Of a stretch of DNA of 61,458 nt, positions 16,235 to 56,046 are shown in pieces (the first letter of the stretch is position 1; the number at the start of each line of letters is the position of its first letter). Below the pieces are notes generated by a model. That model ran no database searches. It had not been told where the DNA came from and saw nothing but the letters and a program-made list of their open reading frames with translations. The position numbers were made by a program, and so were the translations under genes. The stretch is from Candidatus Omnitrophota bacterium (GTDB taxonomy: Bacteria; Omnitrophota; JACPQZ01). The stretch lies in NCBI GenBank assembly GCA_016190205.1, contig JACPQZ010000013.1:1-61458 (forward strand), in the 5' to 3' direction.

Positions 16235-16302
16235 AGCTTATCAGCTATCAGCCTTCAGCTATCAGCTATCAGCTTTCAGCCTTCAGCTGAAGGCTGAAAG
16301 CT
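16235..16302. repeat. Heptamer tandem array (AGCTATC/AGCCTTC/AGCTTTC) ending in a perfect 32-bp palindrome
   Basis: agctatc agccttc agctatc agctatc agctttc agccttc agct gaaggct gaaagct; 16271-16302 is self-complementary. Confidence 0.9.
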
Positions 16303-16305
16303 ATG

Positions 16306-17409
16306 TTAAATAATGGTTAGGTCGGTCGTACAATCGAAAAAGTGGGCCTTGCTCATATCAAACACCACCGTCAAATCTTGATTGGGAGCGGCGCGCTCAT
16401 GGGCAGGAAACCGTGCGACAAAAAGGTGTTTCCCGGTTGAGAGGTGGAGATAGGTCTCGGCCCCCATAGGTTCACTCACCTCAACCGTAGCCGAGAGCGT
16501 ATTGTCCTCCGAAACCTCTGTGACAGACAGCTTGTCGTAAATATCCTCCGGCCGGATTCCAAAGATGACATCCTTCTCCCGGTAGGGAGCAATCCTCTCA
16601 TGCATATTGTCCAGAATCTTGACCTTGAAATTCCCTTCATCGAAATAGAAGGATCCATTTGCGCCCCGAACCCTTCCCTTCATGAAATTCATGGGAGGGC
16701 TCCCGATGAAGCCCGCGACAAAACGGTTGACCGGCTTATCATAAATGGAAATCGGATCGTCGTTCTGCTGGATCTGGCCCTCATGCATCACGACGATACG
16801 GTCCCCCATAGAAATGGCCTCCACCTGGTCGTGGGTCACATAGAACATCGTGGATTGGAGCCGGCTATGGAGCTTGATGATCTCCGCCCGCATCTGCACC
16901 CTCAGCTTGGCGTCGAGGTTGCTCAAAGGCTCGTCGAACAGAAACACCTGGGGCTTGCGCACGATGGCCCGTCCCAAGGCCACCCTCTGCCTCTGCCCGC
17001 CTGAAAGCGCCTTGGGCCGGCGGTCCAACATCTTCTCCAGCCCCAGAATGACGGCCGCCTCCTCCACGCGCTTTCGAATCTCCGCCTTGGGGTAGCGCCG
17101 GAGCTTAAGCCCGAATGCCATATTTTCATACACGCTCATGTGGGGATACAGGGCGTAGTTTTGAAAGACCATGGCGATCTCGCGTTCCTTGGGCGCGACA
17201 TCGTTTACCCGCCGCCCTCCGATATAAATGTCCCCGGCACTGACCTCCTCGAGTCCGGCCACCATGCGCAACGTGGTGGTTTTGCCGCAGCCCGAGGGCC
17301 CTACCAAGACGACAAACTCCCTGTCGCTCACCTTAAGATCAATCGCGCGGACGGCCTCGACATCATCACTAAACCTCTTCGTCACCTTCTCCAGCCTGAC
17401 CTCTGCCAT
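16306..17409 (-). CDS. Sugar ABC transporter ATP-binding subunit (MsmK/UgpC/MalK family)
   Basis: GPSGCGKTT, MVFQNYALYPHM, LSGGQRQR, FDEPLSNLDAKLR, YVTHDQVEA, C-terminal TOBE. Confidence 0.94.
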   Translation of the reverse strand: MAEVRLEKVTKRFSDDVEAVRAIDLKVSDREFVVLVGPSGCGKTTTLRMVAGLEEVSAGDIYIGGRRVNDVAPKEREIAMVFQNYALYPHMSVYENMAFGLKLRRYPKAEIRKRVEEAAVILGLEKMLDRRPKALSGGQRQRVALGRAIVRKPQVFLFDEPLSNLDAKLRVQMRAEIIKLHSRLQSTMFYVTHDQVEAISMGDRIVVMHEGQIQQNDDPISIYDKPVNRFVAGFIGSPPMNFMKGRVRGANGSFYFDEGNFKVKILDNMHERIAPYREKDVIFGIRPEDIYDKLSVTEVSEDNTLSATVEVSEPMGAETYLHLSTGKHLFVARFPAHERAAPNQDLTVVFDMSKAHFFDCTTDLTII

Positions 17410-17416
17410 GTTCCGG

Positions 17417-18334
17417 TTATGCCCTCCCTTTTGAGCCGGCGATGCGCGCCTGCCCCGCGGTCGCCGAAGGCGACTTTGCGGGTGCCTGTCCGTTCATGAG
17501 ATAATGCAAGAGCTGTGAAATAGTCTTTTTGAGATCACGTCTCGCCACGACCATGTCGATCAGTCCATGCTCCAGAAGAAATTCAGAACGTTGAAAACCC
17601 GGGGGGAGCTTTTGCCGGATGGTCTGTTCGATGACGCGAGGTCCCGTAAACCCCAAAAGCGCCTTCGGTTCCGCGATGACCAGATCCCCCAGCGAGGCAT
17701 AACTGGCCATGACCCCTGCCATGGTCGGATTGGTCAAAACTGAAATATAGGGCCGTCCGGCCTTTTGGTACCGGGCTATGGCCGTGCTTGTCTTGGCCAT
17801 CTGCATAAGGCTTAAGACGCTTTCATACATGCGCGCACCCCCTCCGGAACCCGAGACGATCACGACCGGCAGGCGTTCTTCGTGGGCATGCTCCACCAGG
17901 CGCGTGAGCTTTTCCCCCACCACAGAGCCCATGGACCCCATGATAAAGCGCGAATCCGTCACCCCAAACGCTACCGTCACTCCATCCATACGGCCGGTCC
18001 CCGTTACACAGGCCTCTTTAAGACCTGTTATTTTGCGGTCTTCCGCAATCTTTTCGGTATAGGTCTTCGGTCCCTTAAAGGAGAGAAAATCAACGGACTC
18101 AAGGTTCGGCTCGCGCTCTTTAAAACTTCCGGAATCCAGGAGCAGATTGATACGTTCAGAAGCCCCCAGAGTGAAGTGATACGAACACCTGGGGCAGACC
18201 ATCAGGTTGTCCGCAAGATGCTTGTTAAAAATAGCCCTCTCGCAGTCCGGGCACTTCGTCCAAAGGCCGGCCGGGATTCCGCGTTTCCGGGGTCTTTCGC
18301 TGCGGGGGTCCGCTGGCTTCCCAAAAAGGGGCAT
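17417..18334 (-). CDS. accD: Acetyl-CoA carboxylase carboxyltransferase beta subunit
   Basis: WTKCPDC..VCPRC zinc finger, GSMGSVVGEK, GGARMYE, LMQMAKTS, GFTGPRVIEQT. Confidence 0.95.
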   Translation of the reverse strand: MPLFGKPADPRSERPRKRGIPAGLWTKCPDCERAIFNKHLADNLMVCPRCSYHFTLGASERINLLLDSGSFKEREPNLESVDFLSFKGPKTYTEKIAEDRKITGLKEACVTGTGRMDGVTVAFGVTDSRFIMGSMGSVVGEKLTRLVEHAHEERLPVVIVSGSGGGARMYESVLSLMQMAKTSTAIARYQKAGRPYISVLTNPTMAGVMASYASLGDLVIAEPKALLGFTGPRVIEQTIRQKLPPGFQRSEFLLEHGLIDMVVARRDLKKTISQLLHYLMNGQAPAKSPSATAGQARIAGSKGRA

Positions 18335-18475
18335 TTACCTAACCGATTGCGTGTGAGATAGTAAAATCTGAAGGTAACGGCGCGTGTATTTAAAGAAGTA
18401 TACTTCTTTCCAAAACTAATGTCAAGCAAACTGAAGCAAGCGCCTTTTTCTTAACATATTAATATAACTAGGGTT

Positions 18476-18505
18476 TTGCGACAATGGCACGTTTCATGCT
18501 ATAAT
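18476..18505 (+). promoter_or_regulatory. sigma70 promoter of rpoN overlapped by a sigma54 (-24/-12) site
   Basis: TTGCGA(18476)-18 nt-TATAAT(18500) with TGn extension; TGGCACGTTTCATGCT at 18485-18500 with GG and GC 12 nt apart. Confidence 0.7.
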
Positions 18506-18540
18506 TTCATGAACAACAACAAGGATGCCTCACATTCTCC

Positions 18541-20028
18541 ATGGCACTCGAAACCAGACTGACGCAGAAGCTCACAACCCAGCTCACCCTTACCCCCCAA
18601 CTCAAGTTATCCATAGATATCCTCCAACTCCCCATCCTGGAGCTTGCCGCAAGGATCCAGCAGGAACTTGCTGAAAATCCTGTTTTAGAGGAAGACGACG
18701 ACTCCCGCTCCGCCGAGCCTTCCGATCGCCCAGACGGCGAAGCCTCCCGCAATAAGATGGAGCAGGAGTGGGATGCCAAGGACGTGGCACTCGCCAACCT
18801 CGTGGAAAGCTGGAAGGAAAGCTTTCAGACATCCCTCAACGAACGCCCTGAAGATATCCAGTCAAAGTTAGATTATTTAGAAACCCTGATTTCAAAGCCG
18901 CCCACCCTGGCCGAGCACCTCCTCCATCAATACGGCCTGATATCATCCGGCGAAGAGGAGAAAAGAATTGCGGAAACCATTATAGGAAATTTGGATGAAA
19001 ACGGCTATCTGAAATCTACTATAGAGGAAATGGCCCAAGATCTGCAAAAAGAGCGGGGCCTAGTGGAGGAGGTCCTTAAAAAGGTGCAGGGGCTTGACCC
19101 GCCCGGAATCGCGGCCCAGGACCTCAAGGAGTGCCTGATCCTTCAGCTCGCCCGGCTTCCCCAATCCAACCCACGACTCATCGCGGAAAGAATCGTGCGC
19201 GGGGCGCTGGCCTTCCTCGAGAAAAAGCAGTTTGCCAAGATAGCGAGGGCGCTTTCGCTCACGCAGACTGAAGTCGCCCACGCCGTTCGGGTCATCTCCG
19301 AACTGGAGCCCAAGCCGGGCCGCCGCTTCAGCAATGAGCGGGTGATCGCCGCCGTGCCGGATGTGGTCATTCTGGACAAAGACGGCGAACTCAACCTCGC
19401 CGCACGGGATGAAGACCTGCCCCGCTTGAGGATCAGCGAGCGCTACCGCAGGATGCTCAAGGACCCCCGTCTGGACAAGCAGGCAAAAGATTTCATACGG
19501 CAAAAAATGCAGCTCGCGGCCGGCTTCATCCGCGCCGTCGATCAGCGCCACACGACGCTCATCCGCATTGCCAAGGAACTCGTAACCACGCAGAAACTCT
19601 TTCTCGAGAAAGGCATTGAATACTTAAAACCCCTGCGCCTTAAAGACATCGCCCGCGCCACGGGCCTGCATGAATCCACCATCAGCCGCACGGTGCAGAA
19701 TAAATACATTGAGACGCCCAACGGGGTTTATCCGCTCAAGCACTTTTTCAGCCGGGCCATCCCGTCCCAAAACGGAGATCCCATGAGCCAGGCCAGCATT
19801 AAAGACCGCATCCGGCGCCTGATAGACGAGGAAAGCCCGGGCGAGCCCTTGAGCGACGCCCAGGTCACCCGCGTATTAAAAAGCGACGGCGTGGCCATTG
19901 CCCGCAGGACGGTGGCAAAGTACAGGGAGGAGCTCAAGATTCCGCCTACCCATGAGCGCAGGAGAAAAGATAGACATGAAACCGTTATGAGGGAGGAGAG
20001 AGGAAGGAAGAGAGATGAGAAGGTTTAG
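18541..20028 (+). CDS. rpoN: RNA polymerase sigma-54 factor
   Basis: Q/L-rich region I, ENPVLE, IGNLDENGYL, HESTISRTVQNKY, RpoN box ARRTVAKYREEL. Confidence 0.97.
   Translation: MALETRLTQKLTTQLTLTPQLKLSIDILQLPILELAARIQQELAENPVLEEDDDSRSAEPSDRPDGEASRNKMEQEWDAKDVALANLVESWKESFQTSLNERPEDIQSKLDYLETLISKPPTLAEHLLHQYGLISSGEEEKRIAETIIGNLDENGYLKSTIEEMAQDLQKERGLVEEVLKKVQGLDPPGIAAQDLKECLILQLARLPQSNPRLIAERIVRGALAFLEKKQFAKIARALSLTQTEVAHAVRVISELEPKPGRRFSNERVIAAVPDVVILDKDGELNLAARDEDLPRLRISERYRRMLKDPRLDKQAKDFIRQKMQLAAGFIRAVDQRHTTLIRIAKELVTTQKLFLEKGIEYLKPLRLKDIARATGLHESTISRTVQNKYIETPNGVYPLKHFFSRAIPSQNGDPMSQASIKDRIRRLIDEESPGEPLSDAQVTRVLKSDGVAIARRTVAKYREELKIPPTHERRRKDRHETVMREERGRKRDEKV
19989..20023. repeat. Purine-rich degenerate heptamer run in the rpoN 3' end
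   Basis: gagggag gagagag gaaggaa gagagat gagaagg. Confidence 0.55.
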
Positions 20029-20057
20029 TCTCAAATCTCGAGTGCCACGTCTTAAGC

Positions 20058-20441
20058 CTATCTGTTGGGGAGTCCGGATTGCGGATTGGGAATTGCCGAT
20101 TGGGCGGTTTTCGACCTGAATTCCTGCATGACGAGACCTTCTGCAAGATCCTCCACGCGATGAGAAAATTCTAGGTCCCGGGGAACAAGGGCGATCCTGG
20201 AATAAGACGGCGGGGTCGGCAGGCGAAAACGAAGGCCCTCCGGGGTAAACGTTTGACTCATGGCCTGCGAGACGAGTTCCACCACCTCCACGCGCGTTAT
20301 CTCACCCTCGGCGTGCACCCGGTCTAGAAGCGACTGAACCAGCCCATCCACGTCTGCCGACGTCACCTCATCCGCCGCAAAGGCAACGCACCCCCACCCC
20401 GCGAGCGCACAAGCCACCATGAGCACGAGCATCTTTTTCAC
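20058..20441 (-). CDS. Hypothetical secreted protein
   Basis: GTG start with GGTGGGG RBS, signal peptide MKKMLVLMVACALAGW; C-terminal tail encoded by a heptamer array. Confidence 0.65.
   Translation of the reverse strand: MKKMLVLMVACALAGWGCVAFAADEVTSADVDGLVQSLLDRVHAEGEITRVEVVELVSQAMSQTFTPEGLRFRLPTPPSYSRIALVPRDLEFSHRVEDLAEGLVMQEFRSKTAQSAIPNPQSGLPNR
20075..20102. repeat. Heptamer array (CGGATTG)
   Basis: cggattg cggattg ggaattg ccgattg. Confidence 0.8.
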
Positions 20442-20540
20442 GATGTACCCCCACCTATAAGTTTACCTGGCGCAGCACACAAACACCAACCGCCAATCAA
20501 TTCTGTGCGTATCTCGCATGCCATCGTCCGTCAATCGCCT

Positions 20541-20708
20541 GTCGTGAGGGGTGTGTGATGGGTGGTGAGACAGACCCATCACCCATCACTCAACACACAC
20601 GACAAACGTTGCTCGTTCTGAAATCGCTTCACGAGCGACGCTTCACGCACCCCGCACCCCGCACAACGCATCCCGCACAACGCGCCCCGCACAACGCATC
20701 ACGCAGCT
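20541..20708. repeat. Two heptamer arrays (ACCCATC hairpin type; CGCWCNN type)
   Basis: acccatc acccatc actcaac acacacg at 20574, with an inverted partner gtgatgggt; 12 CG-phased units from 20625 (cgcttca cgagcga cgcttca cgcaccc cgcaccc cgcacaa...). Confidence 0.9.
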
Positions 20709-21079
20709 AAGAGGTCCCTCACCTCTTGCACGAACTTTTTGGTCTCGATGGGCTTGATGATACAGCGATCGAAACCCGCCGCGCGGATCTTCTCCTGCTC
20801 CTCTCTCATGGCGAGCGCGGTCCAGGCAATGACCTTGACCGACCTGGACTTTTCCTTCGCGCGCACGGCCTTGAATAGTTCGAAGCCGTCCATATCCGGA
20901 AGATTGATGTCCATGAGAATAAGGTCCGGAGTTTCCGTCTTGAGCATCTGAAGGAGCTCCTGTCCGCTTTGAGCGGTGACCGCGCACATCCCGTGGAGCT
21001 CGAGGAGATCTACCGACAACTTGCGGTTCATCACATCGTCGTCCACCACGAAAATCTTCTTTTTCATATCGTCAGCCAT
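20699..21079 (-). CDS. Single-domain response regulator (CheY/DivK-like)
   Basis: IFVVDDD, DLILMDINLPDMDG, WTA, IKP. Confidence 0.93.
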   Translation of the reverse strand: MADDMKKKIFVVDDDVMNRKLSVDLLELHGMCAVTAQSGQELLQMLKTETPDLILMDINLPDMDGFELFKAVRAKEKSRSVKVIAWTALAMREEQEKIRAAGFDRCIIKPIETKKFVQEVRDLLAA

Positions 21080-21106
21080 TTCGAGTTACCCCCTCCTACC
21101 CTGTGG

Positions 21107-25332: not shown

Positions 25333-26769
25333 CTACAGTATCGGGGTGTGGCCGTGGCCCAAGTGCTCCGCAACCTCTTCGGGCGTGAAGCCCTCGAAGC
25401 TGTGTTCGTTAGGATCGGGATCGGGATCGGGCTCCGGCTCTGGCTGTGGCTCGGGCTCCGGCTGTGGCTCGGGCTGTGGCGGAGGAGGAGGCGGCGGGAT
25501 ATAGTTGTCATAATTTTGATTTTCGAAATCCCGCGGCTCAAAATCCTGATAATTCTGCTCGAAGTCCTGGAAATTTTGCTCAAATTCCTGGTAATTCTGT
25601 TCGAAGTCCTGGTGATTCTGTTCGAACTCCTGGGAATACTGCTCGAACTCCTGCGAAAATTGCTCGAACTCGTTCGAGTACTGCTCGAAGTCCCCCATAT
25701 TTCCCTCGAACTGCTCGGGGCCCATGCCTTCGAACTGCTCTGGGTGAAAGCCCTCGAAATGCTCGGGGTTCATCCCTTCAAACTGCTCGGGGTTAAAGCC
25801 CTCGAACTCCGTCCCGATGCCGTCTTGAAATAGCTCACCCATCTCGCGCATCAAGGACTCGCGGGTAGCGGGGTCAGCCGCCTCCCAGGTCTGCCGCATC
25901 TCATTCATTTGCTCAAATTCGGCCTGGCTGATCTCACCGCTCGCAAGGGCTTCCTGGAGATCCCCCTCGGTGGGGGCTTGCATTTCCCCTATGGGGCCCT
26001 GAAATTCACCCATGGGACCCTGAAATTCCCCGCCGGGGCCGGGACCGCGAAATTCCCCGCCGGGACCGCGAAATTCACCCATCGGGCCTTGAAATTCCCC
26101 GGCGGGACCGGGACCACGAAATTCACCGGGCCCTCCGAACCGCTCGGGACCGCCCCTGTAGGGGCCTTCACCTCGAGAAAAGCCCTCAAAGCCGAGTTGT
26201 GCCATGTGTATTTCGCGCTCGCCGGCCCCCCGGCTCAACGCCTCCCCTTCCCACTCGCGGAACATCTCCCGCGCGTGCTCCATCATTTCCGGAGAAGGCA
26301 TATAGCGCTCGCCGACCTCAAAAGCGGCCATGGCCCTTTCCCCCTCTTGAAGCATAAGCTCCATTTCCTGGGCCGCTTCCGGATCTACAGCCCTAAGCCG
26401 CTCGATCTCCGCCAGGGCCTGGCCCTGGTTAAGCTCAAATTGCTCACGGGCCGCCTCGCGCACCTGGGGCGGGATCTCGACACTAAGATCGCGGCCGGAC
26501 CGCATGATGTCCGCCGCTTCGCGCACCACCGCGGCGCGCTCCATCGGGTCCGTCACGCAGTCCTCCGCCAGATCACGCACGGCCCCCGCAAGCTCCGCGT
26601 CCTGCGCGAGTTCCGGATCGTTCTCGATGTAGGCCTCGACAGCCGCTGCGAGAACCGGGTCCGTGGTTGCCAATTGAGCCTGGGCGGTCTCTAGATATGC
26701 AGGATTTAATACCAGCGCCATAGCGAGCGCGAGGTGCGTCGAAACCTTAAGTGCGGTACCCATATTCAT
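25333..26769 (-). CDS. Secreted acidic multi-repeat protein (GPGGEF, FEGxxPEx and EQYSQEF-type repeats, Pro-rich linker)
   Basis: Signal peptide, AAGGGAGATG RBS; nucleotide and peptide repeats visible; His-containing C-tail. Confidence 0.8.
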   Translation of the reverse strand: MNMGTALKVSTHLALAMALVLNPAYLETAQAQLATTDPVLAAAVEAYIENDPELAQDAELAGAVRDLAEDCVTDPMERAAVVREAADIMRSGRDLSVEIPPQVREAAREQFELNQGQALAEIERLRAVDPEAAQEMELMLQEGERAMAAFEVGERYMPSPEMMEHAREMFREWEGEALSRGAGEREIHMAQLGFEGFSRGEGPYRGGPERFGGPGEFRGPGPAGEFQGPMGEFRGPGGEFRGPGPGGEFQGPMGEFQGPIGEMQAPTEGDLQEALASGEISQAEFEQMNEMRQTWEAADPATRESLMREMGELFQDGIGTEFEGFNPEQFEGMNPEHFEGFHPEQFEGMGPEQFEGNMGDFEQYSNEFEQFSQEFEQYSQEFEQNHQDFEQNYQEFEQNFQDFEQNYQDFEPRDFENQNYDNYIPPPPPPPQPEPQPEPEPQPEPEPDPDPDPNEHSFEGFTPEEVAEHLGHGHTPIL

Positions 26770-26793: not shown

Positions 26794-27888
26794 TTACATA
26801 GGCTGCGGTTCGTATTCCTCTGGATTAGGCCTTTCCTCCACCTCGACCGGTTGATCAAAATCGAGGTCGAGTTCGATGGTCTCATGCTCGTATTCCGGCG
26901 CGTCGTACTCGTGCTCCAACTCTGGAGTTTCGTAGTCCGCCTCCGGGGCTTCGTAATCCGGCACCTCTGACTCATTTTCGGCCGCCTCAAAATCGCTTTC
27001 TACTGCCTCGTATTCGTGGTCCAGCCCCTCATACTCATTTTCCATGGCTTCGTATTCGTGCTCCATGGTCTCGAAGTCGTGTTCCGCTGAAGGTGCTTCG
27101 TAGTCCGATTCCTGGGCCTCGTGATCTGTCAATCCCTCCATCTGGGATTCGTTCTCTTCTCCCGGATCTCCGTAAAAATCTGATGGCTCGTACTCGTCAT
27201 TCCGAAGCGCGTCTTCTTCCCCACTGTAATCCACCCACTCCGATGGCTCGCTATTTTCCAAGTATTCGTTCTCCAACTCAAAACCAGAGTCCCGGAGCTC
27301 GCTCCCCCACCGCTCCTCCATCTCTTGACGGAACTGCTCGAATTCCTCCGGAGCAAACTCTCCGTGCTCTTCGCCCGTGAAGGGGTTCTCCGTCTCCCAC
27401 TGCTCTTTCATGATGGCCTGTTCCCCGGGGGTCGCGTTTTCGTACTGCTCCCACATCGCTTTTTGCTCGTCCGTCATCTCTCCAGGCAGTCCCTCTCCAC
27501 CCTGGCCGTATGGGTCAAACCCCTGATTTTCGAAGATCGGATATCCACCGCCAGGCAGGGTCACCCCCTCCGGCAGCAGGCCTCCCTGAGTCAGGAGCTC
27601 CGGGGTACCCTCTCCCAGGTTTCCACCTTCACCTTCCTGGCGGAAAGACTCCATGGCATCACGGGCAAGGGCCTCCGCTTCTTCAAGGCTTAATCCATGC
27701 TCCGCTTGCAAGTTAGCGACGAGGTCCTCGAAGCTCACCCCCTCTGCCCCACCCTCGGATAACGAGGCGGCATCGGGACTCACCGCATCCTCTGCCTCAT
27801 CAGCCGCTTGAACGGCGGGTGCACCTAAAAGAATTAAACCCAAAATGAGAACGCTCAAAACTTCCTTCAGCCACTCTGTACGGCTCAT
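26794..27888 (-). CDS. Secreted Glu/Asp-rich low-complexity protein with HEYEA-type heptads
   Basis: GAGGAGAG RBS, signal peptide ending AVQA, E/D-dominated body with few K/R. Confidence 0.8.
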   Translation of the reverse strand: MSRTEWLKEVLSVLILGLILLGAPAVQAADEAEDAVSPDAASLSEGGAEGVSFEDLVANLQAEHGLSLEEAEALARDAMESFRQEGEGGNLGEGTPELLTQGGLLPEGVTLPGGGYPIFENQGFDPYGQGGEGLPGEMTDEQKAMWEQYENATPGEQAIMKEQWETENPFTGEEHGEFAPEEFEQFRQEMEERWGSELRDSGFELENEYLENSEPSEWVDYSGEEDALRNDEYEPSDFYGDPGEENESQMEGLTDHEAQESDYEAPSAEHDFETMEHEYEAMENEYEGLDHEYEAVESDFEAAENESEVPDYEAPEADYETPELEHEYDAPEYEHETIELDLDFDQPVEVEERPNPEEYEPQPM

Positions 27889-27950: not shown

Positions 27951-27977
27951 AAAATAGTATGGTTAAGCTTTAACCAC

Positions 27978-28060
27978 CTGGCAACTGGCTATCCGCCAAA
28001 CAGCGCGGCGGACCCTATAGCTTTGCGCCCCCGCCTTACGACGGGTTTGCCCTTTTCAGG
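27978..28060 (-). promoter_or_regulatory. c-di-GMP-I (GEMM) riboswitch aptamer
   Basis: Minus strand GGGCAAACCCGTC-GTAA-GGCGGGGGCGCAAAGCTATAGGGTC...GATAGCCAGTTGCC: GGCAAAC, GNRA-capped stem, CGCAAAGC and AGCCAG-TGCC hallmarks. Confidence 0.92.
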
Positions 28061-28432: not shown

Positions 28433-28453
28433 ATAGCCCTCTTTTACCCCGTG

Positions 28454-28597
28454 CGTATCTCGTATCTCGTGAAGCGTATCTCGACAGCCCCTTGTCATGC
28501 GAGCCTCGTTCGTATCTCGTATCTCGTGAAGCGTATCTCGCAATCGAATATTACTACGTTTGCGCTTCACGCTTCACGAGCGACGCTTCACGCAACA
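28454..28597. repeat. Heptamer arrays including a duplicated 30-bp block
   Basis: cgtatctcgtatctcgtgaagcgtatctcg at 28454-28483 and 28511-28540; cgcttca-type array at 28563 shares a 25-mer with 20625. Confidence 0.9.
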
Positions 28598-28616
28598 GGC
28601 TACTGAACGTTAAAAG

Positions 28617-28849
28617 AGCCCGCGAGGGGATCTCACGTCGCGCCGGCTCTTAGATCCATCTAATTTGAAACGCCGGCGCTCCCTAAGGGGGGTGCTCGCT
28701 AACAACGCAAATTTCGCGCAGCTACGCACCCCCCTTAGATTCCCCCCTCAACGCTTTCAACCTTGCTCAGGTGGAAAACTCCCGTTTTCCCCCTGAAACC
28801 CCTTTTCCCGTTCGATCCCACTCGCTAAGCAAACCTAGTAAGATAACTA
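28617..28849. other. Structured non-coding element downstream of tRNA-Thr, bounded by copies of the tRNA 3' end (MITE-like or ncRNA)
   Basis: Degenerate direct repeat of the tRNA 3' end at 28617-28632, perfect 16-bp inverted copy at 28810-28825, 13-bp and 8-bp internal inverted repeats. Confidence 0.5.
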
Positions 28850-28922
28850 AGCCCGCGAGTGGGATCGAACCACCGACCTGAGCTTTACGAAAGCCCTGCT
28901 CTACCAGCTGAGCTACGCGGGC
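28850..28922 (-). tRNA. tRNA-Thr(CGT)
   Basis: GCCCGCG acceptor stem, TAGCTCAGCTGGTAGAGCA D-arm, anticodon loop TTCGTAA, GGTTCGATCC T-arm; CCA not encoded. Confidence 0.95.
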
Positions 28923-28931
28923 GTTAAAAAC

Positions 28932-28954
28932 CGTACTTCGAACTTCGTACTTCG
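28932..28954. repeat. Heptamer array (CGTACTT/CGAACTT)
   Basis: cgtactt cgaactt cgtactt cg; exact 16-bp inverted copy at 33825-33840. Confidence 0.8.
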
Positions 28955-28967: not shown

Positions 28968-29459
28968 TTATAGCTTCTTCGCGATCGCGGTGTAAACCTC
29001 CTCGGCGAGCTTCTCCCGCGGCAGAAGGTTCTTGCGTGCCGTAACACGCATCTTGGTGGATGCCTCGGTGATCTTGACGAGCTCAACGGTCACGTCCGTG
29101 TCAGCAACCTTTCCTTTTAGGACGCCTCCCGCCTCATCATCGGAGGTGAGCGTCCCCTTTTCCTCAAGCACCGCCTTGGCCGCCTTCCAAATGCGGTCAT
29201 ACTTGGCGTCCGAAAAACCCTCCGCGCTCCCCTGGACCATGGCGTAGGTCCCGGCCGCGGCCCCGGCGCCCACGAGGGCGAGGGCGCAACCTGATGTGGT
29301 CAACGCAATACAGGACAGAAGGATCAAAACGAGCTCTAAGCTGCCGCCTCGCGTGCAGCACCTTGCGGCTTGAGGAAGTTGACTATGGACAGTGGACAGC
29401 GGACCCACGACGGACGACGGACGACGGACGACGGACGGGACAATTCTATTTGCTATCAT
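28968..29459 (-). CDS. DUF3568-like lipoprotein
   Basis: TSGCALALVGAGAAAGTY lipobox region and VTVELVKITEASTKMRVTARK; start uncertain because a heptamer array lies in the 5' part. Confidence 0.7.
   Translation of the reverse strand: MIANRIVPSVVRRPSSVVGPLSTVHSQLPQAARCCTRGGSLELVLILLSCIALTTSGCALALVGAGAAAGTYAMVQGSAEGFSDAKYDRIWKAAKAVLEEKGTLTSDDEAGGVLKGKVADTDVTVELVKITEASTKMRVTARKNLLPREKLAEEVYTAIAKKL
29381..29437. repeat. Heptamer array (GACGGAC/GACAGTG)
   Basis: gactatg gacagtg gacagcg gacccac gacggac gacggac gacggac gacggga. Confidence 0.88.
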
Positions 29460-32712: not shown

Positions 32713-33680
32713 ACCCCCTCCTTGCCCCGGTTGAACCAGAGCGAGACAGCACCCCAGTCTCCCACCTGCTCTCCCAATGACGAACGGATGACGCGTACGG
32801 AGCGGTAGCTTTCAGGCCACGTGGCCCTGCGCAGGGCACGGCGCACAGGCCCCAAAAGAAACTCCCCCGCCTTTGAGACACCGCCGCCCAGGGCGATGAC
32901 GGAGGGATTCACAACCTGAACCACCTGCGCCAGCGCAAGCCCCAGCCACTCGGCCGCCTGAAGCCAGATCTTAAGCGCTGTCGGATCACCCCCCCGGGCA
33001 GCGCGCTCTACGAGAATAGCGTTGAGGCGCCGGGGTTCGCCCCCGCACAGTTTACGCAGCACACGAGAAGCCCGAGCGCGCACAGCCGCGCGGGCCTCTG
33101 TGGCCAGGGCCGTCCCGCTGGCCAGGGCTTCCAGACATCCCCGTTTCCCGCACAGGCACTTGGGACCGCCGGGACTCAAAACCACATGCCCAATCTCGCC
33201 CGCGCCGAAACTCGCCCCGCGCCAGACGCGGCCGTCCAGCACGAGACCCCCGCCGATGCCGGTGCTCACCGTGACATAAAAGAGGGAGCGCGCTCCCCGG
33301 CCTCCGCCCTTCGTAAACTCCGCGAGCGCCGCGCAGTTTGCGTCATTATCCATCCGGACATCCAATTTCATCCGGCCCTGGACGACTCTTAAAATATTCA
33401 AGCCGGCAAGCTGTGGAAGGTTCGGGGCCCGGTAGATTACCCCTAAGTCAGGATTCACCGTTCCGGGACAGGAGATCCCGATTCCGCGCACGCGCGAGAG
33501 GGAGACCCGCGCACCCTGAAGCAGTGCCCTGGAATGGGACTCGATCTGATCGAAGATGGACGATCTTGAGATCCGGCGGCCAGACGCAAACACGCGCCTT
33601 GCCCATATCCGCCGCTCCGTCGCGAGCACCACAGAAATCTTGGTGCCACCCAGGTCCCACCCTAAGATGTAAGGTTTCAT
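32709..33680 (-). CDS. ROK-family sugar kinase (glucokinase-like)
   Basis: DLGGTKI, NDANCAALAE, STGIGGG, GEIGH, CLCGKRGCLE. Confidence 0.92.
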   Translation of the reverse strand: MKPYILGWDLGGTKISVVLATERRIWARRVFASGRRISRSSIFDQIESHSRALLQGARVSLSRVRGIGISCPGTVNPDLGVIYRAPNLPQLAGLNILRVVQGRMKLDVRMDNDANCAALAEFTKGGGRGARSLFYVTVSTGIGGGLVLDGRVWRGASFGAGEIGHVVLSPGGPKCLCGKRGCLEALASGTALATEARAAVRARASRVLRKLCGGEPRRLNAILVERAARGGDPTALKIWLQAAEWLGLALAQVVQVVNPSVIALGGGVSKAGEFLLGPVRRALRRATWPESYRSVRVIRSSLGEQVGDWGAVSLWFNRGKEGV

Positions 33681-33689
33681 AGCGTGTCT

Positions 33690-33940
33690 CGTACTGCGTA
33701 CAGCGTACAGCGTGATTCGTTCGTCGTACTTCGTATTTCATACTCCGTCACGTTAGCTTGCTGAGCTGAGCCGGAATCAACTTAAAGCCCTGCAATTTTT
33801 CAACAAGCGCGGATCCCCAAACCACGAAGTTCGAAGTACGAAACCTTATGCCATCGCCGTCGCAGCTGTTACCCATTTCACGCTATACGCCAAACGTTGC
33901 ACGCCCAATATTGTACGCACGACGCACAACGCAGTACGAA
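33690..33940. repeat. Three heptamer arrays separated by unique spacers, downstream of tRNA-Phe
   Basis: 33690-33745 (cgtactg cgtacag cgtacag cgtgatt...), 33825-33845 (cgaagtt cgaagta), 33881-33940 (cgctata cgccaaa cgttgca...cgcagta). Confidence 0.85.
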
Positions 33941-33963
33941 CCGAGCAACTCATCGGTGAAAAA

Positions 33964-34036
33964 TGCCGAGGCCCAGAATCGAACTGGGGACGCACGGCTT
34001 TTCAGGCCGTCGCTCTACCGACTGAGCTACCTCGGC
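33964..34036 (-). tRNA. tRNA-Phe(GAA)
   Basis: GCCGAGG acceptor stem, TAGCTCAGTCGGTAGAGC, anticodon loop CTGAAAA, AGTTCGATTCT; CCA not encoded. Confidence 0.95.
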
Positions 34037-34048
34037 GTAAGAATCCGG

Positions 34049-34927: not shown

Positions 34928-36289
34928 CTAAAAAGGCCCCGGTCGGTCCGGGGCCTTTTTTTTGAACGCAGCCTCAAGGACGTTCAACAAAACCGGATCC
35001 CCGGCCACGCACTGCGCCAAGGCCCGGTGGCCTGCAGGATTTAGGTGCCCGTCCCAGGCGTAGAAAAGGGCCTCCGTCTGCCCTGCACGGCGCATCCCCT
35101 CGAAGGAATTGATGAGCGGGATGCCCGACCGTCTTGAAAAGTCCTCGAATAATTCCAAGGCCCCCCGAGCCTCGTACACCTTCCCCTTTTCAAATCCGAA
35201 AGACGTCCTGCCCTCCGACCACTCGTCAGGCCCCACGTTAACGCCGTAGGGGTAGATCCCGATCAACAAGGGAATGCCATGCTCATGCAACAGGTCCCGG
35301 ATCATCAGAATATATTTCTCGCTGACCGCCCAGTACGCCTTAAGAGATTCTGCCGTCCCGCCGTCGCGCAGGAGGAGCAGACGGTCGTTGTCCAGCACGG
35401 CATGGACGGCCTCGCGGCCCTCCTCGCGGGCCTTGAGCCGGGCGATCGCCACCTTGGCCGTCTCACCGGCGAGTTTCGCCCGGAGGTACCCCGCAAGCCC
35501 CAGGATGCGTATTTTCTGAAAGGTGCGGACCCCTTTGGTGTGGATATATTTGGCCAATGCAGACCGGTTCTGGATCCACTCCCAGCGGCTGAAACGCCCG
35601 TACGTGTACTGCGGGTCGCACCTTAAAATCCGGCCGTCCTCATCGAAGATCAGATTCTTTTGATACCAGTAATCGTCCCTTAAATCTCCCCAGTCATACC
35701 ATAAAATAACCGCGTCGGGGTGAAACTCGAGGAAATCGTCCCTCAAAGAAATATAATGAAGGGTGGGAGAATAGCTGGAGACGCCCGCATTGACCACCTC
35801 GACCGGAAACCCCCGCTCGTTGAGATGCTCGCCCGTGAGATACGCAAAGGTCTCTTCGTCCCGCACCGGAAAGCCGAACGTGAACGAATCGCCCAGCATG
35901 AGGACGCGCACCGTATCGCGGGACACAATCGCGGAGGGCTCCTTCCCCCTCAGACCAAAACGGTTGGTGGTGATGTGCACGTCGAACTCTTTCGAGGTGT
36001 AATGATACGTCGTGGAGGGTTTCAACCTATGATGATAGTGGGGGTCTTCGATACCGGCGCTCACTGTCCAGCGCTTGACCCAGAATACCCGGAATCCGGC
36101 CTCCGCAATGAGGAGGGATACGAGGACGGAAAGTGCCGCGAGCACCAGACGCAAAAGCCGTCGCTCGGGTCTCGGGCCTTGGGTCCCGGGGCTTGGGTCC
36201 CGGGGCTTGGGTCTTGGGGTTCGGCTTTCGATACCCGATACCCTATACCCGATACCCGGACTACGCACCACGCTGTACGCTGTACGCAC
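34928..36289 (-). CDS. Membrane-anchored SGNH/GDSL hydrolase (SxtL-like)
   Basis: TM anchor, TNRFGLRG, block I LGDSFTFG, NAGVSSY, C-terminal DGHLNPAGH; start uncertain (GTG 36289 reads through a heptamer array). Confidence 0.82.
   Translation of the reverse strand: MRTAYSVVRSPGIGYRVSGIESRTPRPKPRDPSPGTQGPRPERRLLRLVLAALSVLVSLLIAEAGFRVFWVKRWTVSAGIEDPHYHHRLKPSTTYHYTSKEFDVHITTNRFGLRGKEPSAIVSRDTVRVLMLGDSFTFGFPVRDEETFAYLTGEHLNERGFPVEVVNAGVSSYSPTLHYISLRDDFLEFHPDAVILWYDWGDLRDDYWYQKNLIFDEDGRILRCDPQYTYGRFSRWEWIQNRSALAKYIHTKGVRTFQKIRILGLAGYLRAKLAGETAKVAIARLKAREEGREAVHAVLDNDRLLLLRDGGTAESLKAYWAVSEKYILMIRDLLHEHGIPLLIGIYPYGVNVGPDEWSEGRTSFGFEKGKVYEARGALELFEDFSRRSGIPLINSFEGMRRAGQTEALFYAWDGHLNPAGHRALAQCVAGDPVLLNVLEAAFKKKAPDRPGPF
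34930..34963. terminator. Bidirectional intrinsic terminator
   Basis: aaaaaggccccgg-tcggt-ccggggccttttttt between convergent genes. Confidence 0.85.
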
Positions 36290-36293
36290 GACG
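36167..36293. repeat. Long compound heptamer array
   Basis: gggtctc gggcctt gggtccc ggggctt gggtccc ggggctt... cgatacc cgatacc ctatacc cgatacc cggacta cgcacca cgctgta cgctgta cgcacga. Confidence 0.9.
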
Positions 36294-36300: not shown

Positions 36301-36480
36301 TTAAAAAAGCGTGTAAATGAACGGGGCGAGCGGAGAGGTCTGGGCGAAGATGAGGATGAGACCGAATAAAAGGAGCACAGCCACCATGGGGATTAGCCAC
36401 CAGAGGCGCTGCCTCCATAGAAAATAAAAGAGCTCACCCACGACCGAGAAACGATTCGAGAGGCGCCTCGCCCACTTCAT
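36301..36480 (-). CDS. DUF5989 / SxtK-like small membrane protein
   Basis: ELFYFLWRQRLWWLIPM...LAPFIYTLF signature; ATGA overlap with the carbamoyltransferase. Confidence 0.88.
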   Translation of the reverse strand: MKWARRLSNRFSVVGELFYFLWRQRLWWLIPMVAVLLLFGLILIFAQTSPLAPFIYTLF

Positions 36481-43130: not shown

Positions 43131-44783
43131 CTATTCTCGTTCTACGCGCCCCGCACCACGCACCCCGCTGCCTGCTACTTTGTTTTCCAAGATGGCGCGC
43201 TGCGCTTCCTCAAGATTTTCCCGTGCCACTTCATCCCGCGGATTGAGCTCCAAGGCCTTCTCAAAATACGAAATGGCTTCCTCTACCCGGCCAGAGCGGG
43301 CGAGGGCGGAACCCAAATTATTATACCCCCCCGCAAAGCCGGGGTTAAGCTCAATTGCCTTACGAAAATTAATGAGCGCCTCGTCCATCCTTCCGGCCCC
43401 GAGGAAGGCGTTCCCAAGACTCGTATAGGTAAATGGAAACTCGGGCTTAAGCCGTATGGCCTCCTCGTAATGCGCCACCGCCTCTCCGATCCGATCGCGG
43501 TCATAGAGAATCCGCCCCAAGGCATAATGCGCCCTGTAGTTCGCGGGACGCGTGGCCACAATATCCCGGAACATCCGTTCCTGGCTCCAATAAACGGTGT
43601 TGCGTAGGGCGGTCAAAAATCCCAGGGAGCCTATGATAAAGGTGAGCATGAGCGCCGATAAAGCCTTCCTCAAACCTGCGGTGGAAAACACCCTCCGCAT
43701 AAACTCCCTCCCGCCCAACACTGCGAGCGTCGCACAGCCCGCCAGCGGAAGGTACATCCGGTGCTCTACGAGGAGGTCGTCGATGGGAATGAAGCTGGAG
43801 CTGGGCAGCAAAACCAGAAAGAACCACAAGGCTGGAAAGCCCCAAGCGGGATATCGCCAAAAGAACCACGCTGAAGCCAGCAAGCTAAATCCCACCGCGG
43901 CCGCCGGCCAAAGCAGTCCGGCCGCGCCATCGGCAGGAGCCCACACATAATCCAGACACTGCGGAACAGGCCAGAGCACGAGCTTGAGATATTGAAGAAT
44001 CACGCGCGGCTGATTGAGGGCATACTCAAGCGGCGTAAAATCCCGCGTAAACCCGGCGCTCGTCTCCGGGCCTTGGGGGGACGCGGCCAGCACAAAGAAA
44101 AGTATCACCCACGTGGCCGCGAGACTTAAATAGAGGCCGCGCCTTATGCGCAAGGCTTCTCTAAGACTCGTTACCAAAAAGATGCGATCATAGAGGAGCA
44201 CGGCCAACGGAGCCGTAACCATCACGGGCTTGGTTGCCATCCCCAAGGCGCAGGAGGCTACAGACATAGCGTACCAGATACCTCGTCCGCGGGCGCGTGC
44301 GCCGCGTATCATACAGTACAAGGTCAAAAGATAAAAAAGCCCCATGAGAGACTCGGCCCTTTGAATGACGTACGTCACGCTCTGCGTCTGGAGAGGGTGC
44401 ACCAGCCAGATGAGCGCGATGCTCAACGCAGTGAAGTAATGAGAGCCTTGCAAGGTCCTGCGAAGAATTCCATAAAGGGCAAGCGCCGCGAAGATATGAA
44501 CCGCAAGATTGAAGGCGTGGTATCCCCAGGGGTTTAATCGCCCCAGTGCGTAATTGAGGGCAAGGGTAAAGTAGACGAGCGGGCGGACGGGGGCGTCATG
44601 GATGGGAGGCTTGGACACGGCCTGGGAAAGCGGCCAAAGCGAGCGGATGTTGGGATTGTCGACGATGGAAAAACCATCGTCGGCCAGGAAGACGCCGGGA
44701 AAACTCGTCAGGTAAAATAAAATCCCGATCGCGCAGATCAGTCCGGGGCCTAGCCACTCGGTCCGCTGTTCCGGGTTTGACAT
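43131..44783 (-). CDS. TMTC-like multi-pass membrane glycosyltransferase with C-terminal TPRs
   Basis: ADD..IVDNPNI, RPL, HPLQTQSVTYVIQRAE, EHRMYLP, RNTVYW followed by TPR repeats. Confidence 0.85.
   Translation of the reverse strand: MSNPEQRTEWLGPGLICAIGILFYLTSFPGVFLADDGFSIVDNPNIRSLWPLSQAVSKPPIHDAPVRPLVYFTLALNYALGRLNPWGYHAFNLAVHIFAALALYGILRRTLQGSHYFTALSIALIWLVHPLQTQSVTYVIQRAESLMGLFYLLTLYCMIRGARARGRGIWYAMSVASCALGMATKPVMVTAPLAVLLYDRIFLVTSLREALRIRRGLYLSLAATWVILFFVLAASPQGPETSAGFTRDFTPLEYALNQPRVILQYLKLVLWPVPQCLDYVWAPADGAAGLLWPAAAVGFSLLASAWFFWRYPAWGFPALWFFLVLLPSSSFIPIDDLLVEHRMYLPLAGCATLAVLGGREFMRRVFSTAGLRKALSALMLTFIIGSLGFLTALRNTVYWSQERMFRDIVATRPANYRAHYALGRILYDRDRIGEAVAHYEEAIRLKPEFPFTYTSLGNAFLGAGRMDEALINFRKAIELNPGFAGGYNNLGSALARSGRVEEAISYFEKALELNPRDEVARENLEEAQRAILENKVAGSGVRGAGRVERE
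43138..43179. repeat. Heptamer array inside the 3' end of the TMTC-like gene
   Basis: cgttcta cgcgccc cgcacca cgcaccc cgctgcc tgctact. Confidence 0.75.
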
Positions 44784-49831: not shown

Positions 49832-49873
49832 AAAAAAGCACACAGGAGCCAGCCTTAGGCTGGCTCCTGTGTG
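49832..49873 (-). terminator. Intrinsic terminator after the G8 gene
   Basis: 16-bp perfect stem cacacaggagccagcc/ggctggctcctgtgtg followed by a T run on the minus strand. Confidence 0.9.
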
Positions 49874-49894
49874 AACATGCTTCATAGGGGGTTA

Positions 49895-53329: not shown

Positions 53330-53530
53330 GTTCGGGCATGATACATGATCTACGTCACCTACCGAACTCTCCAGTTAATGAAAACACTCCAATCGACCTC
53401 TTATTCCGCACTTTATAAAAAAACATAACTTTTGCGCGAAAAGAGCTTGCATTTTGTACATTTGCAAAGGTGCACTATGGGGTCGAATGAAAAGGGGGTG
53501 GACACGACCGCGTGTCCGGCCGAACGAGGG

Positions 53531-54895: not shown

Positions 54896-54898
54896 GAC

Positions 54899-55420
54899 CT
54901 ATCCCGTAAACTCCGCTTCGTCCAGGAGCCGGAACTCTTCTAGCAGGTCCTCGAGTTCCGAGCCCCCCTCTTCTAGGGCGGGTTCCTCACCCATCTCCGA
55001 CAAGAGATCCAAAAGCCGCTCTACCTCTTCCTCGTCGCTCACATCCTCGACCGCTTCGGCAAGCACCAGGCTGTCCCATTGCTCCAGCTCGTCCTCCAAA
55101 AAGCCCCCATCCAGATCTACTTCCTGTTCCACAGCCTCCAGGATATTCCACTCTTCCTCGATCGCCTGCGTAAGCTTGAGTGGGTCGGTCGGCCCTGGCT
55201 TGAGGATAATTACGGCCAGGAGACAGGCCGCCGCGAGTCCCATGCCCCAGGCGAGCCGCGGGGCAAAAATCGGGACCGTTTGAGGAGAGGGGGCTTGCTC
55301 GGCGCGAATACGACGCATCACATCCTCCGTAAAAGCAGCCCCCTGCTCTTGAGAGGGGCCCAGCAGAGGGTGTTTCTTAAGCCAACGTTTAAGTCTCGCT
55401 AAAAACAGTTCTTCATGCAT
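54899..55420 (-). CDS. Putative anti-sigma factor (single TM, acidic C-terminus)
   Basis: Overlaps the ECF sigma stop; TM WGMGLAAACLLAVII; E/D/L-rich tail; no HxxxCxxC motif. Confidence 0.7.
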   Translation of the reverse strand: MHEELFLARLKRWLKKHPLLGPSQEQGAAFTEDVMRRIRAEQAPSPQTVPIFAPRLAWGMGLAAACLLAVIILKPGPTDPLKLTQAIEEEWNILEAVEQEVDLDGGFLEDELEQWDSLVLAEAVEDVSDEEEVERLLDLLSEMGEEPALEEGGSELEDLLEEFRLLDEAEFTG

Positions 55421-55997
55421 AGCGGCGCTCCTCCTGCCAGTAGGGCTCCAGCAACCGCTGAAGAGCCCTGGTAGCCTTAAAAATGTGGGCCTTGACCGTC
55501 CCCGTACGGCGGCCCATCACCTGGGCCACCTCTTCTAGCTTGAGGCCCTGCACATGGTGCAGTAAAAAGGCTTCTCGTTCCCTTTGCGGAAGCTCACGTA
55601 TCGCCTCCGTCAAACGCGTGCCGAGTTCTGCGCTGGCCGCGGCTTCCCGCGGGCCCTGACCCGGATCCGCCACTTCAAATATTACGGCATCCTGTTCGTG
55701 CCGCTCCGGCGGGTCCTGGACCACCCGCCTGCGGTCTCTCCCTTTGCAAAAATCTTTACACTCGTTCAGGATGATCCGGTAAAACCACGTAAAGAACCTG
55801 GCCCTTCCCCGGAACCGGTCCAGGTGCCGGTACGCCTTCACGAACGCGTTCTGGGAGATGTCCCTGGCATCTTCCCAATTACCCACAAAGCCGTAAGCCA
55901 GCTGCCAGGCGGCCGCCTGGTACCGGCTTACGAGCTCGGCGTAACGCCCGGTCTCACCCGCGAGGACCGCCCTTATCAGTTCTTCGTCAACCTGCAT
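55413..55997 (-). CDS. ECF RNA polymerase sigma factor
   Basis: Region 2 DARDISQNAFVKAY..FTWFYRIILN; region 4 LPQREREAFLL..EEVAQVMG..GTVKAHI; start reset to ATG 55997. Confidence 0.93.
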   Translation of the reverse strand: MQVDEELIRAVLAGETGRYAELVSRYQAAAWQLAYGFVGNWEDARDISQNAFVKAYRHLDRFRGRARFFTWFYRIILNECKDFCKGRDRRRVVQDPPERHEQDAVIFEVADPGQGPREAAASAELGTRLTEAIRELPQREREAFLLHHVQGLKLEEVAQVMGRRTGTVKAHIFKATRALQRLLEPYWQEERRYA

Positions 55998-56011
55998 GTT
56001 CACAGGCGTTC

Positions 56012-56046
56012 CGATGGACGAAGGACGAAGGACGATGGACGATCCG
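56012..56046. repeat. Heptamer array (CGAAGGA/CGATGGA)
   Basis: cgatgga cgaagga cgaagga cgatgga cgatccg. Confidence 0.88.

Follow-up and report, generated by a model that had tools for sequence, protein, structure and literature searches.

Heptanucleotide repeats have been catalogued for decades in cyanobacteria, Xanthomonas, Beggiatoaceae, and other bacteria, without a mechanism or a partner protein. Those of heterocystous cyanobacteria, the short tandemly repeated repetitive (STRR) heptamers, were reportedly described by Mazel et al. in 1990; they are tandem 7-nt units, with several families per genome, dispersed and mostly intergenic, and their function is unknown. Arrays of this kind occur in a contig of 61,458 nucleotides (nt), the whole of which is referred to below as the window, from a Candidatus Omnitrophota bacterium (GenBank contig JACPQZ010000013.1; contig C75 of genome G000 in our numbering). 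A preliminary description of this DNA had likened the arrays to STRR, and the comparison is apt with regard to the period-7 excess, the dispersal, and the mainly intergenic placement. Nevertheless, they are not STRR sensu stricto, a term that implies heterocystous cyanobacteria and STRR1-3 units: the units are others, and the rpoB product of this genome is 65% identical to that of one metagenome-assembled genome (MAG) and 56–58% identical to those of Verrucomicrobiota and Omnitrophota MAGs. The Omnitrophota host, a module of five cores, the inverted pairing of 40% of the arrays, and the bracketing of PF05635 genes further distinguish them. The window arrays are probably gene-less modules and fold-backs of a PF05635-associated family of heptamer-array elements located at cistron boundaries.

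Two other heptamer systems offer further points of comparison. The GGGAATC repeats of Xanthomonas campestris and X. axonopodis (Rehm et al. 2015) are 89–93% intergenic and mostly have at least four units (PMC4692102). They form 70–75 convergent inverted pairs per genome, lie nearer the upstream open reading frame (ORF), and are equally frequent on both strands (PMC4692102). All of these features, namely intergenic placement, unit number, inverted pairs, upstream-ORF proximity, and presence on both strands, are also seen here. However, the Xanthomonas repeats consist of one G-rich, quadruplex-forming unit, whereas the roughly 140 unit classes found here mostly contain a single CpG and lack G-tracts. 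Their description names no partner gene (PMC4692102), and a solved relative of PF05635 (2GSC) is a Xanthomonas campestris protein. The TAACTGA repeats of Beggiatoaceae, Cyanobacteria, and Bacteroidetes (MacGregor 2015) have 2–6 units, are almost all intergenic, are mixed in some genomes with other heptamers in composite spacers, and often coincide with contig ends (PMC4679880). They are strongly oriented to the downstream ORF, often ending 1 nt before its start codon, and a single inverted pair has been described (PMC4679880). The heptamer sets, the intergenic placement, and the contigs ending in repeats are common to both systems, but no orientation bias and many inverted pairs are found here.

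Elements of other types share parts of this architecture. Intervening sequences of 23S rRNA can carry a PF05635 (S23p) ORF, and, as in the present case, this gene lies between stem-capable inverted repeats within a longer transcript. The PF05635 cassettes of G000, in contrast, are located between protein-coding genes rather than within a 23S rRNA helix, and have stems made of heptamer arrays. Repetitive extragenic palindromic (REP) sequences, their hairpin-forming doublets (REPINs) with REP-associated tyrosine transposases (RAYTs), and the miniature transposable elements with inverted repeats known as MITEs likewise include short intergenic repeats, hairpin doublets, a gene flanked by the same repeats, and deletion-derived copies. 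The flanked gene here, however, encodes a four-helix bundle of about 118 amino acids with no known nuclease or transposase fold, and the RAYT-like gene of G000 uses another repeat. Although the architecture works like that of REPIN-RAYT and MITE families, assignment to either class is not supported, since no transposase is associated with the elements and no consistent target-site duplication was seen. The literature searches returned no paper that links heptamer repeats to PF05635, describes a five-core module, or reports heptamer repeats in Omnitrophota.

The genome comprises 1.65 Mb in 76 contigs, with 57% G+C and a completeness of 92.8%. Its nearest relative in our genome collection belongs to the same phylum, with none closer, and genomes of this phylum range from 0.7 to 3.7 Mb. 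Period-7 arrays were called with Tandem Repeats Finder (TRF), rows being merged into arrays, and the chance level for the window was taken from 30 dinucleotide-preserving shuffles. For placement statistics, a hexamer-based gene caller was built for this genome, because a naive longest-ORF call wrongly absorbs many arrays (e.g., that at 36163–36293). Array counts are lower bounds, because contig ends are enriched for arrays: 20% of them lie within 300 nt of an array, as against 7.8% of random windows. The arrays also matter for annotation, as they lengthen or disrupt ORFs, fragment assemblies, and exaggerate the apparent 5′ and 3′ ends of genes.

The listed arrays are real and far beyond chance. 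TRF returned 18 period-7 rows in the window, whereas the shuffles (n = 30) averaged 0.77 rows and never exceeded 3. The calls start at 16239, 20075, 20574, 20638/20644, 28454, 28510, 28563, 28935, 29386, 29407, 33690, 33824, 33886/33915, 36164, 36229, 36270, and 56012, at or beside nearly all the coordinates first proposed. Of the remaining two, the site at 43138 was missed by TRF yet holds an exact five-CpG chain at 7-nt spacing, and that at 19989 has no TRF call and is merely a degenerate tract, the weakest site listed. Genome-wide, 643 rows were found at period 7, while periods 6 and 8 gave 31 and 40, and periods 14 and 21 a further 162 and 43; after merging, there are 623 arrays, totaling 22.9 kb and 143 canonical unit classes. 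The period-7 density (3.9 rows per 10 kb) is extreme compared with unrelated bacteria (0.5). An assembly artefact was not borne out either: Logan contigs from two runs, which represent the same population, are identical in sequence over 33600–34040, and as they were assembled independently, the arrays are not artefacts of one assembler.

The building block of these arrays is a core of 2–5 nt, mostly CpG, repeated five times at strict 7-nt spacing (30–31 nt in all), and the four intervening pentamers are partly variable, in a fixed order. TRF array lengths peak at 30–31 nt (145 of 643 rows). CpG chains of lengths 4, 5, and 6 number 183, 186 (exactly five), and 60 at spacing 7, as against 147, 14, and 2 at spacing 6, and 60, 10, and 1 at spacing 8. 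Since array length and CpG-chain counts both peak at five cores, the canonical module can be written CG-N5-CG-N5-CG-N5-CG-N5-CG. It had been noticed that most units keep a CG at the same phase, and this is the case: CG is present in 70% of consensus units, compared with 47% after within-unit letter shuffling (z = 12.8). The window contains six exact five-CpG modules (28454, 28511, 28563, 29408, 43138, and 56012), together with three composite chains of greater length. Modules adjoin one another in tiers, and about 40% face an inverted partner, giving imperfect nested hairpins.

The complete form of the element is a PF05635 gene between two inverted arrays, in G000, in most other Omnitrophota, and in several other phyla. 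Five PF05635 genes were found in G000, and only one of 14 control genomes had any. Four of the five, none of them in the window, lie directly between inverted heptamer arrays, with the following flanks:

Gene on contig C13: CGTACTG... on one side, ...ACGCTGT on the other
Gene on contig C21: CGTGCTT on one side, AAGCACG on the other
Gene on contig C31: GT-rich units on one side, CACTCAT on the other
Gene on contig C24: ACCAGNN on one side, NNCTGGT on the other

These flanking units are among the commonest of the genome, and for each gene-bearing copy there are about 100 without the gene. The PF05635 ORFs C21:22913-23338 and C31:33652-34053 read into the downstream array, which adds 15–25 array-encoded residues. 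PF05635 is regarded as Avd-like, and both its Pfam name and its relation to Avd are documented (PMC10053308). The C13 protein matches Protein Data Bank entry 2GSC (Xanthomonas campestris XCC0516) with E = 9e-27, and this entry has five chains.

The same arrangement is found well beyond this genome. PF05635 is present in 127 of 201 Omnitrophota genomes, often in 3–13 copies, and in 34 of 50 assorted genomes of other phyla. The two 180-nt flanks share an exact inverted repeat of at least 10 nt at 25 of 30 PF05635 loci, each from a different Omnitrophota genome other than G000, compared with 14 of 321 geometry-matched controls (4.4%). Across 63 loci from Omnitrophota and other phyla, a period-7 array lies in at least one flank of 51 and on both sides of 33, and the units of the two sides are reverse complements in 31 of these 33. 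Bracketed loci outside Omnitrophota come from Bacteroidota, Verrucomicrobiota, Syntrophales, and a deltaproteobacterium. Arrays flanking PF05635 genes have a length peak of 31 nt. Similarity between PF05635 proteins tends to go along with similarity of the units that flank their genes (Mantel rho = -0.10, p = 0.015), a signal that comes from 14 close pairs, including one duplicated locus, and is inseparable from shared descent.

A link between gene-bearing and gene-less copies is provided by the ACCAG family, which comprises 36 fold-backs of 111–465 nt with symmetric ends. It includes deletion derivatives of the PF05635 cassette, because two of its copies keep gene remnants. The first, C24:38951-39215, is about 97% identical to the cassette C24:40196-40705 without some 250 nt of the gene; it retains both arms and the leader, along with the 21 initial codons and a few final ones. 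The second consists of the last 20 PF05635 codons, with 100% identity, beside the array at C15:29452. The end of contig C24 truncates one more cassette copy. In at least one family, one "empty" hairpin is an internal-deletion derivative of a PF05635 cassette, as MITEs are of autonomous elements. Terminal inverted repeats together with an internal-deletion origin, the hallmarks of MITEs, are found in the ACCAG family only, which is absent from the window. The two related copies C24:38967-39215 and C24:40212-40705 have ATGA at both ends; the left ATGA is the stop codon of the upstream gene, and the right ATGA is the start codon of the downstream gene, after a shared GGAG-N7. These borders may reflect insertion into an ATGA stop/start overlap, a pattern limited to two or three copies.

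Several points weigh against reading the window arrays as parts of a PF05635-associated family. Gene remnants occur in the ACCAG family only, and none are found in the families present in the window; the ends of the ACCAG fold-backs show no consistent direct repeat that would indicate a target-site duplication. Sixty percent of the arrays are solo, without an inverted partner. In a 15-copy alignment of hairpin arms, only one compensatory pair was found, so the arms are conserved as sequence, not demonstrably for pairing. As the units flanking PF05635 genes are also the commonest ones, random placement would give the same picture, and the PF05635 protein could be a passenger settling in hairpin loops rather than a driver; we know of no catalytic activity for this family. 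Among 41 genomes sampled at about 40 kb each, the link between array density and PF05635 copy number is weak: median period-7 rows per 10 kb are 0.25 vs 0.76 (one-sided p = 0.038) and Spearman's coefficient for density against copies is 0.26 (p = 0.09), both without phylogeny control. Counter-examples include the array-rich genome G002, which has no PF05635, and several genomes with 6–9 copies that have no arrays in 33–40 kb. A metagenome scan for close strains with empty or filled sites, with the carbamoyltransferase as query, returned nothing above 61% amino-acid identity.

The elements of the window are as follows (strand is given where one applies):

16239–16302: fold-back of TCAGCYW heptamers, from TRF and inverted repeats I10 and I13, between two minus-strand genes
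19989–20023, plus strand: degenerate purine-rich GAGNNNN x5, from sequence inspection, in the 3′ tail of the sigma-54 (rpoN) ORF 18541–20028
20075–20104: CGGATTG x4 array, from TRF, within the 3′ end of the minus-strand ORF 20058–20441
20507–20612: composite element with a truncated CGTATCT module, a conserved linker, and a hairpin, from inverted repeats I1 and I2
20625–20703: chain of 12 CpGs at 7-nt spacing, from TRF and the CpG chain
28454–28483 and 28511–28540: two 30-nt modules CGTATCT-CGTATCT-CGTGAAG-CGTATCT-CG with a conserved linker between them, from five-CpG chains
28563–28592: 30-nt module CGCTTCA-CGCTTCA-CGAGCGA-CGCTTCA-CG, from inverted repeats I3, I8, and I11
28932–28954: CGTACTT/CGAACTT array with four phased CpGs, from TRF and the CpG chain, adjoining the tRNA at 28850–28922
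29386–29437: TGGACAG x2.7 followed by ACGACGG x4.4, from TRF and the CpG chain, with a five-CpG module at 29408–29437
33683–33748: left side of a nested fold-back, from TRF, the CpG chain, and inverted repeat I4, directly upstream of the start of a ROK gene
33824–33939: right side of the nested fold-back, from TRF and inverted repeats, abutting the tRNA at 33964–34036
36163–36293: three adjoining tiers, from TRF and the CpG chain, between the small minus-strand ORF 36301–36390 and an SGNH-hydrolase gene
43138–43167: exact five-CpG 30-nt module CGTTCTA-CGCGCCC-CGCACCA-CGCACCC-CG, from the CpG chain
56012–56041: exact five-CpG module CGATGGA-CGAAGGA-CGAAGGA-CGATGGA-CG, from TRF and the CpG chain

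The sigma-54 identity of ORF 18541–20028 comes from a Logan gene call.

Most of these elements have relatives elsewhere in the genome. The first consists of a 7-unit array followed by an inverted arm, in which 16271–16302 is a perfect 16+16 palindrome, and has three other copies with 87% identity over 59–64 nt, two on C70 and one on C35. In the composite element, the hairpin (GT-rich/AC-rich and heptamer-periodic) has arms at 20535–20567 and 20574–20604; the segment 20507–20636 has at least eight copies, with 83–87% identity over 68–131 nt, and the hairpin core has 18. The adjoining chain starts with a CGCTTCA-CGAGCGA-CGCTTCA module and continues as a CGCACMM array up to the stop codon of the minus-strand gene 20699–21079. 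This module corresponds to a 25-mer which, as first noticed, recurs exactly at 20625 and 28570, and a third copy lies at C33:8408. The segment 28454–28509 is 96% identical to C37:6759-6705, and 28506–28594 is 97% identical to C33:8344-8432 over 89 nt. The other recurrence noticed at the outset, a 16-mer inverted between 28932 and 33825, is also exact; its relatives occupy 36 positions genome-wide, often as the inner tier of ACCAG elements. For the solo array, a 57-nt copy of 29381–29437 lies at C43:26814 (91% identity), and the module is also present on C13, C36, C42, and C54.

In the nested fold-back, the left side has an outer tier of CGTACWG with eight phased CpGs and an inner tier of CGTACTT; ACGAAGT units at 33824–33842 are inverted to 33727–33741, and CGCNNNA arrays at 33881–33939 to 33689–33713. 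The three tiers at 36163–36293 are CTYGGGT/CCCGGGG (period 14), CGATACC x4.3, and ACGCTGT x2.6 (in a 7-CpG chain); the last, at 36262–36288, belongs to the same family as the arrays flanking the PF05635 gene C13:857-1168. The module at 43138–43167 lies in the last codons of a tetratricopeptide repeat (TPR) gene, shortly ahead of where the following gene begins, and has no other copy in the genome by blastn. That at 56012–56041, between the minus-strand genes 55413–56003 and 56065–56913, has one related copy (C65:15931).

Two neighborhoods contain further sequences. Beside the tRNA at 28850–28922, tRNA sequence recurs twice in a gene-less stretch of about 250 nt (28595–28870): 16 nt of the T-arm/3′ end are repeated exactly in inverted orientation (28810–28825 vs 28855–28870), and part of the 3′ end is repeated in direct orientation (about 28626–28641). 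The carbamoyltransferase gene is directly followed by a short ORF for a hydrophobic product, MVAVLLLFGLILIFAQTSPLAPFIYTLF, at 36301–36390 on the minus strand; the longest-ORF call, which reads through the arrays from a false upstream start, hides it.

The enrichment at gene boundaries that had been expected for these arrays holds genome-wide. Fully intergenic arrays account for 456 of the 623, and arrays make up 10.9% of intergenic DNA, an extreme case, as against 0.31% of coding DNA, a 35-fold difference. Among same-strand gene spacers, 210 of 840 (25%) contain an array. Arrays that overlap an ORF mostly stay close to one of its ends, no more than 90 nt from the 3′ or 150 nt from the 5′ terminus, and 51 are interior. 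Copies are found almost only in short transcribed same-strand spacers, from the stop codon to the ribosome-binding site (RBS), or in dispensable gene ends, and cistron boundaries would be the places where selection tolerates arrays. Co-linearity of genes is extreme in this genome (840 same-strand spacers vs 32 convergent and 48 divergent), and the window genes from 20058 to 57363 are nearly all on the minus strand. Three window ORFs (20058–20441, 43131–44783, and 18541–20028) end within arrays.

Inverted pairing is also far more frequent than in controls. A reverse-complement 11-mer partner within 500 nt was found for 247 of the 623 arrays (40%), compared with 14 and 24 (2–4%) in the reversed and complemented controls, and the loops are mostly 0–200 nt long. 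The longest inverted repeats of the window are all array-borne: 16243–16302, 20535–20604, 28452–28594, and the nest 33689–33713/33915–39, whose inner pair is 33727–41/33824–42. Window hairpins fold as RNA on the transcribed strand, with stems that are imperfect at variable positions. The fold-back at 16239–16302 reaches -37 kcal/mol (z = -6.2); the module at 28563, partly complementary to those at 28454 and 28511, forms with them a joint hairpin at 28452–28594 (z = -2.8); and a 283-nt fold pairs both sides of the fold-back at 33683–33939 (-103 kcal/mol, z = -2.5). A z of -3.1 was obtained for the tiers at 36163–36293. The arrays at 20075–20104 (z = +1.35), 29386–29437 (z = +2.65), and 43138–43167 are unstructured as RNA.

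Such placement and folding could suggest that the arrays are host cis-elements for operon expression, namely RNase III or RNase E sites, stabilizers like REP sequences or bacterial interspersed mosaic elements (BIMEs), or tracks for single-strand-binding proteins. Arrays in co-directional spacers between stop codon and RBS, several of them folding stably as RNA, agree with this explanation, and one cold-shock protein per heptamer and a translational role have been proposed for TAACTGA (PMC4679880). We nevertheless consider it unlikely. Orientation relative to transcription shows no general bias (231 sense vs 209 antisense), only the ACGCAGT/ACGCTGT class leaning to sense, and purine content equals the spacer background for paired and solo arrays alike. 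A T-rich tail follows only 10 of 98 hairpins, and a role as intrinsic terminators was rejected on this ground. Compensatory change in the arms is almost absent, arrays also occur in ORF ends and interiors, and the neighboring genes are functionally unrelated. A search of the window against Rfam returned only two tRNAs and a c-di-GMP riboswitch, none at the arrays. The RNA processing or stability signals initially suggested are, in this strand-specific sense, not supported.

In-place polymerase slippage with a 7-nt bias would require neither an element identity nor a partner, and PF05635 genes would be passengers in hairpin loops. The wide variation of units (143 classes), the existence of long, near-perfect arrays (such as 29407–29437, with a 100% match in TRF), the weak tie of array density to PF05635 copy number, and the large share of solo arrays are all in line with it, and a polymerase footprint of about 7 nt has been proposed as a cause, in work cited by PMC4692102. 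However, slippage does not predict a size mode, a unit order, travelling linkers, or a shared vocabulary. Slippage-type simple sequence repeats have homogeneous units in open-ended copy number, and the length distribution here is non-monotonic, with a sharp five-core mode (186 chains vs 10–14 at neighboring spacings). The heterogeneous unit order is kept over 14–40 copies: 14 sites carry, with up to 4 mismatches, the 30-mer CGTATCT-CGTATCT-CGTGAAG-CGTATCT-CG, whose third unit is the odd one, about 40 ACCAG modules have a common 4+3-unit layout with a 3-nt hiccup in between, and modules recur at up to 14–18 sites. An exact 14-mer is common to another array in 534 of the 623 cases. Window elements recur together with their non-repeat linkers (83–97% identity over 56–131 nt), identical composite modules are already seen at non-homologous sites, and the deletion derivative keeps gene remnants. 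The five-core module, the copy-paste recurrence, and the PF05635 bracketing with a deletion derivative are, therefore, not explained by slippage, which we regard as distinctly improbable. The initial view of a propagated element class is instead sustained by the fixed module size, the fixed heterogeneous unit order, and the near-unchanged recurrence, sometimes with conserved non-repeat linkers.

It had also been proposed that the phased CpGs form methylation tracks or tracks for proteins binding double-stranded DNA, three units corresponding to two helical turns. CpG is strongly enriched and phased at 7 nt, and the lack of strand bias would fit a role at the level of the duplex. The proposal fares poorly, however: the C5-cytosine methyltransferase domain PF00145 has no match in the 92.8%-complete genome, the observed/expected ratio of CpG is 1.05, about 30% of the units, including those of the abundant ACCAG family, have no CpG, and a 7-bp spacing would, from the helical repeat, place successive cores on different faces of the helix. 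This makes such tracks very improbable.

Finally, REP/REPIN-type elements moved by Y1 (RAYT/IS200-like) transposases are hardly credible here, even though the genome has four such genes (PF01797) and REPINs are likewise intergenic inverted doublets flanking a mobilizer gene, because inverted heptamer arrays enclose none of the four, the gene on C32 comes with a different repeat, GGGGTCAGGTCTTGCATTATCACA, away from heptamer arrays, and, of the remaining three, only that on C66 is close to an array, on one side. RAYT-type mobilization was accordingly rejected for these four genes, the other two of which have no heptamer array nearby. The C32 gene (10212-11048) is part of a REPIN-RAYT-like system (C32:10150-11072), in which it lies between perfect inverted copies of this 24-nt, non-heptamer REP. 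The REP has 15 copies, none near a heptamer array, and is also present at 13 other sites, on C18, C31, C32, C49, C64, C65, C68, and C70, often as doublets about 58 nt apart. As initially stated, there is no mobilizing gene in the window itself. A diversity-generating retroelement was rejected as well, as the reverse transcriptase domain PF00078 has no match in the genome, and two module patterns were absent from viral contigs.

If the window arrays do belong to a PF05635-associated family, they would be arms, solo arms, and fragments of small fold-back elements spread genome-wide, which would be copied from site to site, with no in-place growth by slippage. The five-core module may be the recognition unit of a trans-acting factor, for which PF05635, with a solved relative of five chains, is a candidate. 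In operon transcripts, the hairpins would probably act like the stems of rRNA intervening sequences, that is, as RNase III substrates, and the elements would then be near-neutral passengers with side effects on mRNA processing rather than dedicated regulators. A bolder and rather doubtful proposal is that PF05635 proteins, probably as pentamers, read the 30-nt five-core modules and, together with host replication and repair enzymes, propagate the fold-backs without a transposase. Gene-less arrays would, in that case, be the non-autonomous offspring of PF05635 cassettes, and the 7-nt period as well as the five-core size would be accounted for by protein structure, with each subunit taking one core. 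The same explanation would possibly extend to STRR, GGGAATC, and other heptamer repeats left unexplained since 1990. PF05635 constitutes a testable partner for heptamer repeats, through module binding, oligomer state, and RNase III processing.

Repeats and signals unrelated to the arrays were also observed. The riboswitch of the window is a c-di-GMP-I-GGC aptamer (27976–28060, minus strand, 64.7 bits), upstream of ORFs 25333–26769 and 26794–27888. Both ORFs are acidic and repeat-rich, with coding tandem repeats of 21, 24, and 27 nt that are unrelated to the heptamer arrays. Within the minus-strand ORF 60239–61285, a 54-nt unit is repeated twice exactly at 60772–60877, with a 27-nt sub-period (92%). 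An ORF of 1144 amino acids encodes a beta-helix surface protein.

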